Part shown: piece by piece, positions 1 through 8,201 of the stretch
Layout of the letters: the number at the start of each line of letters is the position of its first letter
Numbering within the stretch: the stretch's first letter is position 1
Virus genome (UHGV): UHGV-0380619
Origin: a virus
Strand: one strand, 5' to 3'
Length of the DNA: 10,543 nt
Notes under the pieces: model-generated
What the model saw: only the letters and a program-made list of their open reading frames with translations
Told to the model about the DNA's origin: nothing
Databases searched by the model: none
Made by a program: the position numbers and the translations under genes

Positions 1-3
1 CCT

Positions 4-186
4 TCACGATTTCAACGCAATGACCAGTTTTGCCAGCCCATACAGCATCGGGGACACAGCAACACCGACCGCCACCCACTTAATGGCAAAAGCCAGTGCT
101 CTGCTGATGTCATCAGTTACAGGCGCTTTCAGTTCAAGGCCGTTTTTCATAGTCAACCTCAACAGAATTCGTTTATACTTTTCCAT
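4..186 (-). CDS. Small hypothetical protein (about 60 aa) with a hydrophobic C-terminal segment, downstream of the endolysin
   Basis: Complete ORF with stop at 4-6. ATG at 186..184 is preceded by AGGGAG but with only 3-nt spacing. Alternative starts: GTG at 219 (track start) or ATG at 150 preceded by GAGGT. C-terminal stretch AFAIKWVAVGVAVSPMLYGLAKLVIAL is hydrophobic. No family recognised. Confidence 0.3.
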   Translation of the reverse strand: MEKYKRILLRLTMKNGLELKAPVTDDISRALAFAIKWVAVGVAVSPMLYGLAKLVIALKS

Positions 187-220
187 GTTCTCCCTTGCCT
201 TATCCAAGGTCAGAAACACA

Positions 221-253
221 AAACCCCGCTTGCAGCCAACAAACGGGGTTTTT
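221..253. terminator. Putative bidirectional intrinsic terminator between the endolysin and the small ORF
   Basis: Hairpin CCCCGCTTG/CAAACGGGG at 224-248 (9-bp stem, one mismatch, 7-nt loop), flanked by AAAA upstream and TTTTT (249-253) downstream on the plus strand; the minus-strand copy is followed by TTTTGTGTTT. Confidence 0.45.
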
Positions 254-342
254 ACTTTTATTCACTTAGGTTTTGCCAGTTCTCAGGATTTCGTGTTATC
301 CGTCCGCATTAGCCAACGTCATTTTTCAACAAAATATTCTGC

Positions 343-876
343 TTATTTGTCAATTCCCCAGCACGCCAGCGCGCTCTCCTGGTCACGCCGTGAGACCTGT
401 CCATAGCAGTTATTTGAACGAATACGGCAGTCTCTGCCACCGTCCTTAATCCACCAGCGAATCGCCTCACATGCTCCCCTGCGATCGCCAGCATTAATTC
501 GTCTGTAAAACGTCGACGGGAAACACTTACCGGGACCAATGTTGTACGGACAGAATGACGCGATCCCCGCTTTCTGGGGTTCGGTCAATGGCACTTTGAT
601 GTTTTTCTCCACCCATGCCAGCGCCTTATCACGCTCAATGGCGTTAACCCGGTCGCATTTTTCCTTCGACAACTTCATGCCCGGAACGACAGGTTTGCCA
701 TCCACCAGGATGGCACCGCGGCAGATGGTCCAGATACCCGCGCCATCACGGTATGCCGTGGTGTGGTTACCTTCCTTTTCATCCAGAAACTGGTCGAGAA
801 TGTCAGGCGCAGGCGCACCAGCGGCAATCAGCGCCAGAACGGCAGCCGACAGGCCGTATCTGATTTTTGCGTTCAT
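343..876 (-). CDS. R: SAR endolysin (T4-lysozyme-like muramidase, phage 21 R type)
   Basis: 177-aa ORF. N-terminal Gly/Ala-rich weakly hydrophobic signal-anchor-release segment (GLSAAVLALIAAGAPA). Catalytic triad spacing E-8aa-D-5aa-T (EGNHTTAYRD GAGIW T). Strong recalled similarity to P21 R / DLP12 RrrD. Confidence 0.9.
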   Translation of the reverse strand: MNAKIRYGLSAAVLALIAAGAPAPDILDQFLDEKEGNHTTAYRDGAGIWTICRGAILVDGKPVVPGMKLSKEKCDRVNAIERDKALAWVEKNIKVPLTEPQKAGIASFCPYNIGPGKCFPSTFYRRINAGDRRGACEAIRWWIKDGGRDCRIRSNNCYGQVSRRDQESALACWGIDK

Positions 877-981
877 GGATATTTATCAGGATTTATCGGT
901 TTCTGAGCCCTGGATATGTTTATCAGTTCCAGCCTGTTGCCTCAGGCTGCTAACAGGTCAATACAATCATGAGGATTATTT

Positions 982-1107
982 ATGGACAATAACACCATTT
1001 CTCTACAGGAGTTGCTCGACAGCATTTCCAGGCTTCGGGAAGACGTGAATACCCTTACCGTCGCCTTCTCATATCTGGCATTCTCAATTCCAAGGGAACA
1101 GATGTAA
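982..1107 (+). CDS. Candidate small ORF (41 aa) on the opposite strand, between the endolysin and DUF1327 genes
   Basis: ATG at 982 preceded by GAGGA (971-975) at 6-nt spacing; translation MDNNTISLQELLDSISRLREDVNTLTVAFSYLAFSIPREQM; TAA at 1105-1107. Possible sigma70-like promoter upstream (TTGCCT 937-942, TACAAT 962-967). Below the ORF-track size cutoff. Unverified. Confidence 0.2.
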   Translation: MDNNTISLQELLDSISRLREDVNTLTVAFSYLAFSIPREQM

Positions 1108-1219
1108 TCAACGCTGGCATCAATCCAGTTTGAATCATGCAATCCCAAATGGTCTCAGGAACAACAAGACTCTTTCAGGCGGCTTGCTGTATTACTGGAT
1201 GAAAAATATGCTGGTAAAA

Positions 1220-1564
1220 TTACCATTTCGGCGGACTCTTCAGAGAACCCGTAATTATTCCCGGTAGTTTTCCTCTGTAGGTTATCAACACATCCTGCGC
1301 CTCTAAAATTACGGGGCGCTTTTCCGGCGACTGCTCATCCCCTTCACATAACCCGGCAGCAACATCCAGGAAGACCTGTCTGATGCTCCTTCTGGCTGCT
1401 GCCTCATAAAACTCCAGCGCGGCACCTTCAACACGGTCCAGCGAGATGTCCAGGTCAAAAATTTCACCGTCAAAGCGTTTTTTGTCCCGTAACGCTAAAG
1501 TTACCGTAACTTTATTCTCAAAATTGCGGATCCCTTTCACAATCAGTTCATAGTTTTGAGTCAT
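1220..1564 (-). CDS. DUF1327-family protein (YdfR-like) inserted between holin and endolysin
   Basis: 114-aa ORF. ATG at 1564 lies 4 nt after the holin stop and is preceded by GGGGAGAG. Translation MTQNYELIVKGIRNFENKVTVTLAL... resembles my recollection of YdfR, which sits between essQ and rrrQ in Qin. Family assignment is from memory. Confidence 0.6.
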   Translation of the reverse strand: MTQNYELIVKGIRNFENKVTVTLALRDKKRFDGEIFDLDISLDRVEGAALEFYEAAARRSIRQVFLDVAAGLCEGDEQSPEKRPVILEAQDVLITYRGKLPGIITGSLKSPPKW

Positions 1565-1568
1565 TGAA

Positions 1569-1784
1569 TTACTCTCCCCGTGCAGCCTTACGCTTGTCTT
1601 CTCTGATTTTGAAGTACAGATTTGTCAGATAAGTCAGGAAGCCCAGAACCAGACTCCCCAGTACACCAATCGCAGCCCACTGTGACGGACTGACCTGATC
1701 AAGCCACTGTAAAAACCAGTAGCCAGCACTGCCTGCGGAGGTGCCGTAGGCAATGCCCGTTGAAATTTTGTCCATGGATTTCAT
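1569..1784 (-). CDS. S: Class II pinholin (phage 21 S21 type, 71 aa) with dual-start motif
   Basis: Translation [71 protein letters not shown] is near-identical in pattern to S21/EssD as recalled. Dual start Met1-Lys-Ser-Met4. Strong SD GGAGGTGA upstream of ATG at 1784. Two transmembrane segments. Confidence 0.85.
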
Positions 1785-1921
1785 AGCCTCACCTCCGCAG
1801 CGAACGGATGGCGTAGTTATAAGGGGAGCGAAAAAGAAAGAATGCGCGATTGCGCAATATGGTAACGTCAGGGTATTATCCACTGGCTGAATAGATCACT
1901 TCACGTTTTTTGTTCCTTGCC

Positions 1922-1949
1922 GCCCGTATCCATATGCGGGCTTTTTTTT
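1922..1949 (+). terminator. Plus-strand intrinsic terminator (hairpin plus T8)
   Basis: GCCCGTAT..ATGCGGGC hairpin at 1922-1941 followed by eight T at 1942-1949 on the plus strand. Confidence 0.45.
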
Positions 1950-1955
1950 GCATGT

Positions 1956-1985
1956 AAAAAGGCCCCAACACATGTGCGTGGGGCC
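1956..1985 (-). terminator. Minus-strand intrinsic terminator upstream of the holin gene
   Basis: Hairpin GGCCCCA...TGGGGCC at 1961-1985. On the minus strand it is followed by UUUUU (plus-strand A run at 1956-1960). Confidence 0.5.
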
Positions 1986-2185
1986 TGAGAGTATACATGG
2001 TTTCAGTCAACTGCATGGTGCCGGGTGCCTCCCGGTGAATTCAGTACCAGCACCTGAATCCGCGATTATCCCATATACCTACTCGCTGATTGCCCATCCG
2101 CACAGGGGGATTCACCATGCCAGTTTCTTTTAACAAACTCCCCGCAAAACAGACAACTGTCAACCGTCTGAATTGTGAGACATTT

Positions 2186-2211
2186 AAAAAAAAGGCCCGC
2201 AAAAGCGAGCC
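2186..2211 (-). terminator. Minus-strand intrinsic terminator immediately 3' of the tRNA cluster
   Basis: On the minus strand: GGCUCGC-UUUU-GCGGGCC (7-bp stem with one G.U, 4-nt loop) followed by U8 (plus-strand A8 at 2186-2193). Confidence 0.45.
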
Positions 2212-2225
2212 GGGAAAAATAAGTC

Positions 2226-2302
2226 TGGCGCGTTGTACTGGATTCGAACCAGTGACCGATTGCTTAGAAGGCAATTGCTCTGTCCGGTTGAGCTAACAAC
2301 GC
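2226..2302 (-). tRNA. tRNA-Arg (anticodon UCU)
   Basis: Reverse complement folds as a cloverleaf: acceptor GCGTTGT/ACAACGC, anticodon stem ATTGC/GCAAT with loop CTTCTAA (anticodon TCT), T-arm ACTGG-TTCGAAT-CCAGT, 3' GCCA. Confidence 0.9.
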
Positions 2303-2315
2303 AGGGTACAGATAA

Positions 2316-2392
2316 TGGACCGCCATCGAGGACTCGAACCCCGCGCAACCAGCTTCGAAGGCTGGTGCTCTATCCTGATGAGCTAATGGCGG
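2316..2392 (-). tRNA. tRNA-Arg (anticodon UCG)
   Basis: Reverse complement: acceptor CCGCCAT/ATGGCGG, D-arm GCTC..GAGC, anticodon stem CCAGC/GCTGG with loop CTTCGAA (anticodon TCG), T-loop TTCGAGT, 3' TCCA. Confidence 0.85.
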
Positions 2393-2399
2393 TATGTGA

Positions 2400-2475
2400 T
2401 GGTGGCCCTTGCTGGATTTGAACCAGCGACCTGGCGATTATGAGTCGCTCGCTCTCACCACTGAGCTAAAGGGCC
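2400..2475 (-). tRNA. tRNA-Ile2 (anticodon CAU, lysidine type; alternatively tRNA-Met)
   Basis: Reverse complement GGCCCTTTAGCTCAGTGGTGAGAGCGAGCGACTCATAATCGCCAGGTCGCTGGTTCAAATCCAGCAAGGGCCACCA: anticodon loop CTCATAA, T-arm GCTGG-TTCAAAT-CCAGC. Closely resembles E. coli ileX as recalled. Confidence 0.85.
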
Positions 2476-2515
2476 GGGAGCCGCATAATAACGACGCGTA
2501 ATTAATTCTTCAATA

Positions 2516-2794
2516 TCATCCGTTCTGGCTGACTAAATCCTGTACTTCCCGAACCGTCTGCTCAAAACGTTCAGTCTCCAGCTCAACGCCAATTGCACGA
2601 CGCCCGAGCGCCAGTGCCGCTTTCACTGTCGAACCCGACCCCATGAAAAAATCTGCAATCAGGTCACCCGGACGACTGCTAGCGCTGATTATCTGCTGCA
2701 GCATTTCTGCCGGTTTTTCGCACGGATGTTTCCCGGGATAGAACTGCACCGGTTTATGCGTCCAGACATCGGTATACGGCACCTGCGCCGTCAC
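2516..2794 (-). pseudogene. Truncated N6/N4 DNA methyltransferase remnant (C-terminal portion only)
   Basis: Translation carries the C-terminal AdoMet-binding motif region (DLIADFFMGSGSTVKAALALGRRAIGVELE). No DPPY-containing N-terminal half; the reading frame closes at a stop at 2876-2878 and the first candidate start is GTG at 2794. Confidence 0.7.
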
Positions 2795-2852
2795 GCCAAA
2801 ATACCGCCGCAGTCGGCATTCACAACCACCAGCGCATTTAACGTTCAGCCAT

Positions 2853-2877
2853 AAAAAAACCCGCTCGCGGCGGGTTT
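2853..2877 (-). terminator. tR'-like intrinsic terminator downstream of Q
   Basis: On the minus strand: AAACCCGC-CGCGA-GCGGGUUU hairpin followed by U7 (plus-strand A7 at 2853-2859, hairpin 2860-2874). Confidence 0.55.
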
Positions 2878-2945
2878 AAGCTGTGTGGCGAAGTAACCAC
2901 TCTTAACATACTGACATACTTTTTGCGGACCGCACTAATCATTTT
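2878..2945 (-). promoter_or_regulatory. Candidate late promoter / Q-utilisation region (pR'-qut-like), position inferred
   Basis: Directly downstream of the Q stop. On the minus strand there are tandem -10-like hexamers TATGTC and TATGTT (plus-strand direct repeat ACATACT-G-ACATACT at 2906-2920), followed about 40 nt later by the terminator. No convincing -35 found. Confidence 0.25.
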
Positions 2946-3326
2946 TTACTTTTTTAGCAGCCAGTCGTCCATCTCCAGTCTTACCCCCAGCACAGACAAA
3001 CATCCGTCAATAAACCCTTCGGCTATCTGCATCTCAATTCGTATTGCTTTTTCGCTTTTCTTTCTCGTCCTGGCTATCTGTCTTTTTGATATTCGCAACA
3101 AATAATGAGCAATGAGAAGCGAATACTCCTCAGGTTTTTTCTGCTTCAGACGAGCAAGACAGTTTTCAATGATAAGTCCGTCATCATCGCAGCAGGCCGG
3201 ACGTGGTTTAGTGGCAGATGGTAAAAGTCCTTTGAATCCGGCAGCGATCGGAGAATAGTCCACCCCGGTGTTACCACTTGCAGCCCATGCCCCCCAGCGT
3301 TCAAGAACCATCTGAATATCACGCAT
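2946..3326 (-). CDS. Q: Late-gene antiterminator Q (phage 82/21 / QuuD-like family)
   Basis: ATG at 3326 (MRDIQMVLERWGAWAA...) preceded by GGAGAAAG; the track's upstream start at 3341 is TTG. Cys-rich motif ACCDDDGLIIENC. Position immediately upstream of the tR'-like terminator and late region. Confidence 0.8.
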   Translation of the reverse strand: MRDIQMVLERWGAWAASGNTGVDYSPIAAGFKGLLPSATKPRPACCDDDGLIIENCLARLKQKKPEEYSLLIAHYLLRISKRQIARTRKKSEKAIRIEMQIAEGFIDGCLSVLGVRLEMDDWLLKK

Positions 3327-3343
3327 CAACTTTCTCCACAAAA

Positions 3344-4339
3344 TCAGGCCAGCACGCCAATTGCCAGCGCACGATCGATAAAACGAAATATCAGCTCCAG
3401 CTGGGAGCCATACTTCTCTTCAAATGCCACGGTATCCGCATGCAGCTCGTCGTGATGCTTTCTGCACAAAGGCAACACAAAGAGGTCATGCGCTTTTGTA
3501 CCCATTCCCCCCTGACCGTGGCCTATCAGGTGGTGGGGATCATCAGCTGGCTTTCCACAACATGCACACGGCTGTGTCTTAACCCAGCGCGTGTACTTTT
3601 CATTAACCCAGCGGCGACGTTTTGGGCGTAACATAAAAGACTCCGGCGACTCCGGATCCACTTTCAGCGCCAGCACCTTTTTCGCTTTATCCTGGATAAT
3701 GCTGGTGGCAGGAACCGAAGGAACAAGGTCACTCTCCCGGGTGACAGACGGCACAACAGGCTTCGGTAATCTCAGTGCCTTACGGGCTGCACTTTCCGGT
3801 AAGGCATCCGCCAGGTCATTACGAATCAGCCACCAGCACAGTTCCGGCATTGTCACAACGTGACTGTCATCAAAACCGAGATCACGGCGCACAACAGATA
3901 ACACCCAGCGGGCACAGTTATCCGTTGCCATTGATTCCAGCCGTTCCGTGAACTGATCGCGCAACTGGTTATCGCAGTGCCAGCACAGACGGATTGCGCC
4001 CGGAGCGTGCCGCATTGTGGTCATGTTCTCGCTGTGCCAGTCGGAATGAGGCCACTGGCAGCCTTTTTCACGAAGTAACCAGCTTTCAAGACATTCCACG
4101 CCACCAGCACGACGGATCACTGCCTCATTGCGGAACACGGCCCGAACGGCAGGATCATCCGCCAGCGGTTGTGATGCCGCCGGAACGGCACCACTGGCGA
4201 AAGATGAATAACGCTCCGGCTCAGGCTCCAGCAGGACACGCCCCTGCATAAACAGGGGCATCAGCTCTGAACCTGGCCTGAACAATACGATCCCCATACG
4301 CGGGGCAATTTCAGGGGTCAGTAGTGCTCTCACAGTCAC
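3344..4339 (-). CDS. DUF968-family phage protein with HNH-like Cys/His motif (YdfU-like)
   Basis: 331-aa ORF. C-terminal CACCGKPADDPHHLIGHGQGGMGTKAHDLFVLPLCRKHHDELH motif. Sits immediately upstream of Q as ydfU does in Qin. Start uncertain: the first codon at 4339 is GTG; internal ATGs are possible. Confidence 0.7.
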   Translation of the reverse strand: MTVRALLTPEIAPRMGIVLFRPGSELMPLFMQGRVLLEPEPERYSSFASGAVPAASQPLADDPAVRAVFRNEAVIRRAGGVECLESWLLREKGCQWPHSDWHSENMTTMRHAPGAIRLCWHCDNQLRDQFTERLESMATDNCARWVLSVVRRDLGFDDSHVVTMPELCWWLIRNDLADALPESAARKALRLPKPVVPSVTRESDLVPSVPATSIIQDKAKKVLALKVDPESPESFMLRPKRRRWVNEKYTRWVKTQPCACCGKPADDPHHLIGHGQGGMGTKAHDLFVLPLCRKHHDELHADTVAFEEKYGSQLELIFRFIDRALAIGVLA

Positions 4340-7347: not shown

Positions 7348-8201
7348 TTACGCACCTCCTTATGCTTTTCGTTCAGTTCCGAGTCCACCAGCCCGGCAAC
7401 GAATACACCATCGTTGATGTAGTCGTAGAGCGATGAAGCCAGCGGAGACTGAACTGAAACCAGCATCGGATAAAGTTGTTCTAACCAAACGCGGTGAATT
7501 TCAGCCATGTAGAGGTAAACAACGTGGGCATTGTGCGCGACACATGAAGTATCAACCTTTCCGATCAGCGCCTGTTCCATCTGGTTAAAGGCATTGATGT
7601 ATGCCTCTTTGAACTGGGCAGCACGTTTACCCGTGAAACCCATAGCAAGAAACGCAAAGCCATCGCGGGTTATTTGATAGCAAGGTAGTTTGCGAGTACC
7701 GCCGTTGGGCTGGCGTACCAAAATTGATGTCTCCGCAAAATTGCGGGCACAAAACTCTGGAGAACAATCCAAAATGCGAATCTTTTTCAGAACATCGTCA
7801 TGACGTTTAGAGAAGAAGTCAGCAACAGCCAAAGAAGATGTAACAGCCTGACCATCAACGATGGCAATTTCAGGTTGAGAGAGGGTTGGGAGAGTAGTCA
7901 TAGTGACAGCCCCGGTAGTCAGTTTTTTAGAAAACTCACCACATGGGACGCCAATCACAGAGGTGGTGAGACGTACAGGGTTGGCGTTACCGGAGACTAC
8001 CGAACCCGGCCCGACCGAAGTCGGCCCTGTACGCCCCACCATAATTTGGGCGTAGCAATGCTCATGACACGAAAAAACCGCATGAGCGCGGTTATGCTCA
8101 GTAATCAATTTCAGGACGCCAATCCCGGCAACGGATTTTGCCGCTGCCAGAACAATATAACGCCCAGAATTATCAGAATCAATCATTACTGGTTTGCTCA
8201 T
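7344..8201 (-). CDS. Rha-family phage regulatory protein with an unassigned ~100-aa N-terminal extension
   Basis: Rha-like core from about residue 101 (MTTLPTLSQPEIAIVDGQAVTSSLAVADFFSKRHDDVLKKIRILD...). ATG at 8201 preceded by AAGGGA; alternative internal start ATG at 7901. The N-terminal 100 aa have coding-like codon usage. Stop overlaps the O-like GTG start. Confidence 0.65.
   Translation of the reverse strand: MSKPVMIDSDNSGRYIVLAAAKSVAGIGVLKLITEHNRAHAVFSCHEHCYAQIMVGRTGPTSVGPGSVVSGNANPVRLTTSVIGVPCGEFSKKLTTGAVTMTTLPTLSQPEIAIVDGQAVTSSLAVADFFSKRHDDVLKKIRILDCSPEFCARNFAETSILVRQPNGGTRKLPCYQITRDGFAFLAMGFTGKRAAQFKEAYINAFNQMEQALIGKVDTSCVAHNAHVVYLYMAEIHRVWLEQLYPMLVSVQSPLASSLYDYINDGVFVAGLVDSELNEKHKEVRK

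Follow-up and report, generated by a model that had tools for sequence, protein, structure and literature searches.

A probable broken accessory gene, rather than a dedicated antisense control of lysis, opposite the late genes of viral genome UHGV-0380619

What is the function of a small open reading frame that is read on the plus strand between the endolysin and ydfR genes of viral genome UHGV-0380619, against the direction of all lysis genes around it? A preliminary description of this DNA, the whole stretch of 10,543 nucleotides that is called the window here, combined a promoter-like element, a 41-codon frame preceded by a Shine-Dalgarno sequence and a terminator beyond the holin gene into a single unit, placed a perfect 7-bp hairpin ahead of the frame, and proposed that the transcript would be antisense to the DUF1327 and pinholin genes and could modulate expression of the lysis genes in the lysogen. 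All elements of this proposal are found where it placed them, and Pfam matches confirm the identity of the flanking minus-strand genes for the lysozyme, the DUF1327 protein and the holin (Table 1). The comparison with related loci leads to a different interpretation of how these elements belong together: the open reading frame is most likely what is left of an accessory gene, and no regulator that evolved to control lysis by antisense pairing.

Table 1. Features of the lysis region and of the plus-strand elements opposite to it (coordinates of the window).
Feature	Coordinates	Strand	Basis or detail
Endolysin R, 177 aa	343..876	-	PF00959 (lysozyme), E = 3e-24
Conserved non-coding block (CCCTGGATATGTT...CAGCC) with -10-like TATGTT (915-920)	908..934	+	Alignment
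Perfect 7-bp inverted repeat CAGCCTG-TTGCCT-CAGGCTG	930..949	+	6-nt loop
Promoter-like element: TTGCCT (937-942), 19-bp spacer, TACAAT (962-967)	937..967	+	Preliminary description
Shine-Dalgarno sequence GAGGA	972..976	+	5 nt (977-981) to ATG at 982
Truncated frame, codons 1-41 and premature TAA (1105-1107)	982..1107	+	Alignment with intact copies
Rest of the ancestral frame, codons 43-90 and original stop (1252-1254), now untranslated	1108..1254	+	
Convergent 3'-end overlap of the 90-codon gene (+) and ydfR (-), 35 nt	1220..1254		
DUF1327/YdfR family gene, 114 aa	1220..1564	-	PF07041, E = 7e-43
Phage-21-type class II holin, 71 aa	1569..1784	-	PF04971, E = 1e-35
Small unit: TTGCGC (1851-1856), 18-bp spacer, TATTAT (1875-1880), terminator (1922-1941) and T8	1851..1949	+	
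sRNA STnc100	1950..2149	-	RF02076, 133.1 bits (gathering threshold 47), full model 1-206

The 41 codons match the N-terminal part of the 90-residue protein of PHROG 2411 without any difference, and the Shine-Dalgarno sequence, the start codon and the flanks are identical as well. An intact homologue matches phrog_2411 over positions 1-90 (E = 1e-58). The truncation was judged by alignment with the phages 783R2 and Chlobot. A single C to T change at 1105, which converts the codon CAA for Gln42 into the stop codon TAA, is the sole difference between the window and intact copies across 877-1300, and the remainder of the frame downstream of this stop is identical to the intact gene in phage vB_EcoS-783R2 and in strain 120899, where the gene also has the same position between the lysozyme and YdfR genes. 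The window copy, which encodes residues 1-41 of the full-length protein and then TAA, is a member of PHROG 2411 by descent but a pseudogene. That the spacer between R and ydfR holds a genuine plus-strand gene was correctly recognized, as start codon and Shine-Dalgarno sequence are conserved, with a GAGGA or AAGGA motif shortly before the ATG, at a similar distance, in the divergent homologues of prophage and E. coli type that were compared; what had been taken for a complete small gene is the front of a 90-codon gene with a nonsense mutation at codon 42. The frame is intact in all 85 related loci that were fetched, and the truncated allele was seen again in other assemblies from many samples. 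Because the 41-residue fragment recurs in many samples, a residual function of the first predicted helix alone may be conceivable.

Does the intact gene encode a protein? Frame +1 is the only frame that is open in all six divergent homologues; copies from E. coli and from Citrobacter differ by 23, 21 and 47 changes at codon positions 1, 2 and 3, and a dN/dS of about 0.28 indicates purifying selection on the 90-codon frame. Taken together, the codon-position bias, the dN/dS value and the frame kept open in every divergent relative show that the intact gene is protein coding. The view that no plus-strand gene exists here, and that the conservation is due to a minus-strand open reading frame of 68 residues (942-1148) or to structure in the spacer of the late mRNA, is hardly credible. 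Such a minus-strand frame with a TTG start does exist in the window, but it is not conserved among the six homologues, most or all of which contain stops in the minus-strand frames, and the sole stop-free minus-strand frame, frame -2, is open only in the near-identical copies L002 and L005. Moreover, the excess of changes in third positions is consistent with frame +1, and free-standing homologous genes occur at chromosomal sites.

The intact gene product is predicted to be an acidic (pI 4.5), soluble protein of 10 kDa without transmembrane segment, for which AlphaFold2 proposes three helices (pLDDT 73.8). No match to the PHROG 2411 protein was found in Pfam, NCBIfam, PADLOC or the PDB sequences, and fold searches were uninformative. 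A type I toxin was considered and rejected, since the product is not only acidic but hydrophilic, with a maximal Kyte-Doolittle value of 0.75 in 19-residue windows and a GRAVY of -0.43.

How widespread is this family and which neighbors does it keep? PHROG 2411 corresponds to the RefSeq protein WP_000369850.1, annotated by PGAP as 'hypothetical protein' and labeled 'ybl58' in a few records; no paper was found that names 'ybl58' or WP_000369850, and the single paper on DUF1327 is unrelated. The 90-residue family is present in roughly one in five complete E. coli genomes (1117 of 5426), as compared to only 3 of 50,697 phage records. Outside of E. coli prophages the family is narrow at species-representative sampling, because a scan of species-representative genomes gave only two loci. 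Presence of the gene also varies between otherwise collinear phages: the spacer between R and ydfR measures 343 bp including the gene in the window, in 783R2 and in Chlobot, and 63 bp in phage 611R1, which is without about 280 bp, and in strain MS8345. The GC content of the gene (44.7%) and of spacer plus gene (43.1%) is below that of R (55.1%) and of the entire window (50.0%).

In addition to the R/ydfR spacer of prophages, the gene is found beside S and R in a prophage with a 21-type holin but without ydfR, upstream of a lambda-type holin gene in Citrobacter, between tail genes in Atlantibacter, in the order pyrC-dinI-X-bssS-solA on the chromosomes of Serratia and Chimaeribacter, and after an AIDA-type autotransporter gene on the E. 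coli chromosome. Since the neighbors thus differ across prophages and chromosomal sites that have no relation to phages (ydfR, 21-type holin, lambda-type holin, tail genes, dinI/bssS), being antisense to the DUF1327 and pinholin genes, as originally suggested, is not the conserved role of the family. Control by the SOS response was considered and rejected: a good LexA-box look-alike (14/20) precedes the gene in Serratia proteamaculans but is missing from three further copies of Yersiniaceae.

From where could the gene be transcribed? Being opposed to all its neighbors, it needs a promoter of its own. The TTGCCT-19-TACAAT element proposed in the preliminary description is present, but several observations speak against it. 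With a spacer above 18 bp it was not reported by the promoter scan, its predicted start at about 973-975 falls within the Shine-Dalgarno sequence, and its -10 hexamer reads TACAAT in Chlobot and TAGCAT in locus L088 and is absent from the Citrobacter and Atlantibacter types. About 0.1 such promoter matches are expected in the 105-nt spacer (scaled from shuffles), and the match is not significant alone. Preference is given to a -10-like hexamer in a conserved non-coding block further upstream, which is common to the E. coli, Citrobacter and Atlantibacter copies despite their differing genomic contexts and in which the hexamer varies (TATGTT, TATTGT or TACGAT) with A2 and T6 invariant. The -35 region of this block is weak (TTTATC) and its predicted start lies near 926-928. 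Both candidates are weak, with 7-9 of 12 consensus matches and neither passing the standard scan; judged by conservation, TATGTT is more likely the promoter than TACAAT.

If the transcript starts from the TATGTT block, the more likely of the two candidates, the inverted repeat at 930-949 would be located at the 5' end of the mRNA, which would begin with this stem-loop. The hairpin is as perfect as had been claimed. Taken alone it is unremarkable, as the window has 7 places with perfect hairpins of at least 7 bp (12 counts versus 4.6 ± 2.6 in shuffled sequences). In the Chlobot type the stem has 5 bp, and in L088 it is interrupted. As regards a conserved RNA structure, no compensatory changes were found among the E. 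coli types compared, and the repeat only resembles an outer stem, CAGCC...GGCTG, of the distant copies L087 and L103.

Where would such a transcript end? A scan detected no other plus-strand terminator-like site between 1255 and 1922, folding of 1245-1345 gives nothing out of the ordinary (z = -0.8), and no common downstream terminator was found among 86 loci. The sequence GCGCC...GGCGC-TTTT at 1298-1326 was rejected as terminator, as it is outside the minimum-free-energy fold of a region with z = -0.8. In the window allele translation would end at codon 41, and the RNA beyond this codon would remain untranslated and enter a stretch rich in C and poor in G, in which termination by Rho would be expected; across 1300-1580 the C/G ratio is 1.5-2.0, a rut-like composition.

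The plus-strand terminator at 1922-1949 that had been assigned to the gene is present and a strong match (-13.2 kcal/mol and z = -2.2 for 1922-1941 with T8), but it is not inherited together with the gene. The 175-bp spacer carrying it (1786-1960) is found in 97 of 5426 genomes; both carriers examined, MS8345 and phage 611R1, are without the PHROG 2411 gene, and gene and spacer are joined in no complete genome searched (best coverage 87%). The terminator is the putative end of a separate, conserved unit with a promoter of its own, and not of the PHROG 2411 gene. From a predicted start near 1887 this small unit would give an RNA of about 62 nt in total with a U-rich body, and its terminator stands back-to-back with that of STnc100, for which the fold has a z of -4.3.

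Could this unit encode an RNA of its own? We consider the chances about even that the terminator closes an sRNA of about 62 nt with its own promoter, which would converge with STnc100 and be a positional analogue of PasA and PasC, sRNAs of EPEC prophages that are located upstream of the holin gene in opposite orientation (PMC8550237; bioRxiv 10.64898/2026.05.13.724894). Like PasA and PasC, the unit is short, has an intrinsic terminator, lies upstream of the holin gene in opposite orientation and is close to an sRNA of the PasD/STnc100 type, and the two EPEC sRNAs have the same '> < >' placement as the unit (PMC8550237, Table S6). Unlike them, it directly abuts STnc100 and has no detectable sequence similarity to them, as blastn gave chance words only; homology of the stretch 1785-1950 to PasA/PasC was rejected by the same search, and the unit has no match to an Rfam family. 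Diverged homologous units, about 73-76% identical, are nevertheless present in 1078 of the 5426 E. coli genomes. In seven of seven copies examined the unit adjoins the 3' end of STnc100, and in the seven aligned copies TATTAT is identical throughout and TTGCGC in all but one (TTGTAC in L088), with a divergent spacer between them. In the consensus fold the U-rich 5' part is unstructured and the terminator stem has 8 bp, one pair of which is compensated. However, with only three stem variants covariation is thin, the promoter of the unit has 8 of 12 consensus matches only and is absent from the scan list, and the conservation might instead stem from the leader of the minus-strand late mRNA. In some Stx phages the unit of about 62 nt adjoins stx2.

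The explanation that we favor, with a probability of roughly 0.7, is that the locus contains a moron-like prophage accessory gene that acts by its protein and is a pseudogene in the window, with the terminator belonging to a separate unit. The gene would be self-contained and, as its orientation and autonomy suggest, would be transcribed from its own weak promoter in the lysogen, when late transcription is off; it would act via its protein and not via antisense pairing. The bor gene of lambda is likewise located beside lysis genes on the opposite strand, is expressed in lysogens and belongs to the moron class according to the Juhala/Hendrix definition. Similar to morons, the PHROG 2411 gene is an extra element of some related phages, inserted inside the late region, opposed to late transcription and lower in GC content than its neighbors. 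Unlike a classical moron it is without a flanking intrinsic terminator, and unlike the Bor lipoprotein its product is predicted to be a cytoplasmic acidic helical protein.

Alternatively, a transcript originating at TTGCCT-19-TACAAT could encode the 41-residue peptide and proceed antisense through the DUF1327 and holin genes up to 1922-1949, damping leaky lysis genes in the lysogen. All elements of this model exist, the next intrinsic plus-strand terminator downstream of the gene is indeed the one at 1922-1949, any transcript leaving the gene is by the 3' overlap necessarily antisense to ydfR, and the gene is antisense to late genes in each of the four prophage settings that were examined. We nevertheless regard the model as unlikely. 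The 41-residue frame is a mutational truncation, gene and terminator are not co-inherited, and most loci that bear the gene are without a comparable downstream terminator. The antisense partner differs from locus to locus and there is none at the chromosomal sites, the transcript would start within the Shine-Dalgarno sequence, and the C-rich untranslated RNA would be a likely substrate for Rho. The OOP and paQ RNAs of lambda and the sar RNA of P22 are short non-coding cis-antisense RNAs with one fixed target each. A transcript from 982 onward would, like these, be complementary to late-gene mRNA, but the conserved entity at this locus is a protein-coding frame with varying neighbors, and neither a conserved linkage to a target nor a 3' end co-inherited with the promoter was found. 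Antisense control of lysis is unsupported.

A broader variant of this idea, that PHROG 2411 is selected for its antisense place in late operons, where it would silence leaky late genes with the protein as a second function, and, separately, that 1851-1949 is an undescribed Hfq-type sRNA, seems similarly improbable. If it were true, transcription in the prophage phase would converge into ydfR, holin or tail genes, the antisense transcript of the nonsense allele would be shorter owing to Rho polarity and the leakiness of the lysis genes would be altered, and an Hfq-type sRNA beside STnc100 would be common among lambdoid prophages, those of Stx phages included.

What does the interpretation as a protein-acting accessory gene mean for this locus and for the family? 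Neither the PHROG 2411 gene nor the small unit is a new kind of system; the gene is already annotated as hypothetical, and reading the 41-residue frame as the result of a nonsense mutation corrects an earlier misreading. The locus is also a lesson for annotation, as an apparent small open reading frame with a promoter and a distant terminator turns out to be a mutated common hypothetical gene beside an unrelated small unit. This conserved unit, which faces STnc100 and spans about 62 nt, is a possible additional prophage sRNA, and the 90-residue family, which is abundant and has chromosomal orthologues in Serratia, is a candidate for an accessory protein expressed during lysogeny.

What does the short plus-strand open reading frame between the endolysin gene R and ydfR represent? 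The preliminary description had read it as a 41-aa ORF (982-1107) preceded by GAGGA at 972-976, and start codon, Shine-Dalgarno element and all 41 codons are where it placed them, but the ORF is almost certainly only the front part of a 90-codon gene. Phages vB_EcoS-783R2 and Chlobot have a 273-nt plus-strand CDS annotated at exactly this position, which uses the same ATG and yields a product of 90 aa. Comparison with 783R2 over 877-1300 shows one difference, T for C at 1105 in the window, which turns CAA (Gln42) into TAA; comparison with E. coli strain 120899 shows the same one and no other. The intact gene encodes hypothetical protein WP_000369850.1 (PGAP annotation), which has a full-length match to phrog_2411 (E = 1e-58) and none to a Pfam family, and the frame is intact in 85 of the 85 related loci fetched up to that stage of the comparison. 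The gene is already known, being annotated in hundreds of genomes and having a PHROG; the copy in the window, broken by the stop, appears to be a pseudogene. The truncated allele is a genuine inherited variant all the same: a large assembly collection has the 41-aa product in 64 blocks. Over 342-1548 two contigs with the TAA allele (L096, L098) do not differ from the window, but from 1549 onward, in the holin gene and the region upstream of it, their sequence departs from that of the window (mosaic junction at about 1549-1593). The window is therefore a mosaic whose holin-proximal part stems from another lineage.

On sequence grounds the 90-codon frame is to be regarded as a gene. Among six divergent homologues, with amino-acid identities as low as 58%, frame +1 alone is stop-free; differences are concentrated at third codon positions (for example 23/21/47 at positions 1/2/3 between the E. 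coli and Citrobacter copies), and dN/dS is about 0.28 between the two main E. coli types over the 79 codons overlapping nothing. In addition, the divergent homologues compared, of prophage and E. coli type, have GAGGA or AAGGA ahead of the start codon. A rival minus-strand 68-aa ORF is not conserved. The 90-aa product has a mass of 10.2 kDa, a pI of 4.5 and no hydrophobic segment and is predicted to fold into three helices (pLDDT 73.8); sequence and fold searches gave no functional lead.

Of 5426 complete E. coli genomes, 1117 contain 80% or more of 877-1300; of 50,697 phage records, only 3 encode the protein. Presence of the gene, which has a GC content of about 44%, lower than its neighbours, varies between otherwise collinear phages. 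In phage 611R1 and E. coli strain MS8345, where it is absent, the R-ydfR spacer measures 63 bp. Since this short spacer (1528-1590 in L001, the 611R1 locus, and 1366-1428 in L093) retains, in frame, the final 12 codons of the gene (KVVIPEESSENQ*) along with a degenerate version of its upstream block, it looks like a deletion scar. The neighbours also vary between settings: the gene is found between holin and R, without ydfR, in Logan assemblies L088-L090, upstream of a lambda-type holin and a CHAP endolysin in Citrobacter, between tail genes M and L in Atlantibacter, after an AIDA-type autotransporter gene in another E. coli variant, and free-standing in Sodalis and relatives. Serratia spp. 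and Chimaeribacter carry chromosomal orthologues (L099, L111, L112, L113) with about 30-36% identity to the 90-aa family at a fixed site between dinI and bssS (pyrC-dinI-X-bssS-solA). A LexA-box look-alike upstream of the chromosomal orthologue was discarded, occurring in one species and not kept in others. The gene opposes the late genes in all four prophage contexts. Originally a single plus-strand unit over 900-1949 had been proposed, running from a promoter through the 41-aa ORF to a far terminator, antisense to the DUF1327 and holin genes. Such a transcript is physically possible but without comparative support, and we consider it very unlikely; it is a protein-coding unit that is conserved, not an antisense partner.

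The far terminator itself (1922-1941 plus T8) is present and a strong match, and a scan of 1255-1922 gave no other plus-strand terminator-like site, but it seems to lie outside the unit of the 90-codon gene. The 175-bp holin-upstream spacer carrying it was present in 97 of 5426 genomes, each time at 99% identity or more, and both carriers examined (MS8345, 611R1) are without the gene. No complete genome joins gene and spacer (best coverage of 877-1960, 87%), and of 86 sequences with the gene, the window is the only one in which this terminator follows. By its layout the terminator would instead close a compact, separate unit (see table), of which 1078 of 5426 E. coli genomes have diverged copies (73-76% identical). 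Copies were also located at 4132-4236 in L088 and about 1200-1311 in L114-L118. In 7 of 7 copies examined the unit is back-to-back with the STnc100 3' end, as the two terminators are in the window; in O103:H2 strain 12009 it sits between stx2B/STnc100 and the nanS-p esterase gene, the arrangement also seen in Stx2a prophages. All seven copies share the -10 TATTAT and six the -35 TTGCGC (L088 has TTGTAC), but the spacer differs from copy to copy. The terminator stem also changes, with one compensated pair in the alignments. Such a pattern is typical of small-RNA genes; we give even odds to the unit being one, with a product of about 62-70 nt. No Rfam family covers it. The EPEC sRNAs PasA and PasC have the same placement, upstream of the holin and in opposite orientation (PMC8550237, Table S6), but share no sequence similarity with it.

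Features of the window around the lysis genes and elsewhere in the prophage
Feature	Position	Strand	Remarks
71-aa ORF	4-219	-	beyond hairpin 220-252
Terminator-like hairpin	220-252	-	strong, 14 pairs, directly after lysozyme gene
Lysozyme (R)	343-876	-	PF00959
DUF1327/YdfR gene	1220-1564	-	PF07041
Phage-21-type class II holin	1569-1784	-	PF04971
Small unit (candidate)	1851-1949	+	TTGCGC 1851-1856, 18 bp, TATTAT 1875-1880, U-rich body of about 40 nt, 8-bp hairpin, T8
sRNA STnc100	1950-2149	-	RF02076, 133 bits, full-length match
Three tRNA genes	2226-2475	-	Arg-TCT, Arg-TCG, CAT-anticodon tRNA
DNA methyltransferase ORF	2516-2794	-	truncated (fragment)
Antiterminator Q ORF	2946-3341	-	
C4 antisense RNA	7959-8046	-	RF01695, 82 bits; adjoins isrK
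isrK	8071-8147	-	RF01394, 69 bits

Positions 1-3400, read on the minus strand, constitute the late/lysis region of a lambdoid prophage. The tRNA genes lie downstream of Q and of the truncated methyltransferase ORF, a layout typical of Stx-type lambdoid phages; the CAT-anticodon tRNA is Met according to ARAGORN and Ile in the RefSeq annotation of related prophages. The window contains no stx genes. Stx phages carry stx at the position that STnc100 holds here between the tRNA genes and the holin gene. No Rz/Rz1 spanin genes were seen within the window immediately after R, a point in which related loci differ. The C4-isrK pair, elsewhere in the same prophage, is presumably a P1/P7-type immunity and antirepressor control module. 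STnc100 is related to EPEC PasD (bioRxiv 10.64898/2026.05.13.724894).

From where could the 90-codon gene be transcribed? As it is oriented against all its neighbours, it would need a promoter of its own. The element noted earlier, TTGCCT (937-942), 19 bp and TACAAT (962-967), exists, as does the perfect 7-bp hairpin at 930-949, and both are statistically unremarkable: about 0.1 matches to the former are expected in the 105-nt spacer (scaled shuffle expectation), and the window has 7 sites of the latter kind, giving 12 counts against 4.6 +/- 2.6 in shuffles. The 19-bp spacer is non-optimal, for which reason the promoter scan left this element out. With 14 nt between the end of its -10 and the ATG, transcription would be expected to begin at about 973-975, within the Shine-Dalgarno element. 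Furthermore, this -10 reads TACAAT or TAGCAT in the E. coli types and is not kept in the Citrobacter or Atlantibacter types. A block CCCTGG(A/T)TATGTT...CAGCC (908-934), by contrast, is common to all these contexts despite differing flanking genes (alignment A5 of the regions upstream of the gene); its -10-like hexamer is TATGTT, TATTGT or TACGAT, with A2 and T6 invariant. Both candidates are weak by consensus; the hexamer in the block is, in our view, the likelier promoter. Transcription from there, beginning near 926-928, would give an mRNA with the 930-949 stem at its 5' end. At the same place, distant copies show an outer stem CAGCC...GGCTG and an inner hairpin CGTCAG...CTGRCG with one compensatory change (CAGTG/CACTG versus CAGCG/CGCTG). 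The inner hairpin, located some 45-75 nt ahead of the start codon in loci L087, L006, L103, L105 and L106, spans four different genomic contexts and is absent from the window type.

We therefore favour, with a probability of roughly 0.7, a self-contained accessory gene of the moron kind: a weak promoter belonging to the gene would drive it when late transcription is silent, an intact copy would act through its small acidic protein, and the copy here is a pseudogene. Opposite-strand accessory genes in late operons are a well-known kind, lambda bor being an example. In the window the RNA after the premature stop would be untranslated, and the plus-strand RNA at about 1300-1580 is C-rich and G-poor (C/G 1.5-2.0). 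As untranslated RNA of this composition favours Rho-dependent termination, transcription may end well before 1922. The outcome is threefold: the reading of 900-1949 is corrected, an abundant but uncharacterised family of small proteins, which has orthologues on chromosomes, is described, and a candidate sRNA is proposed beside STnc100.
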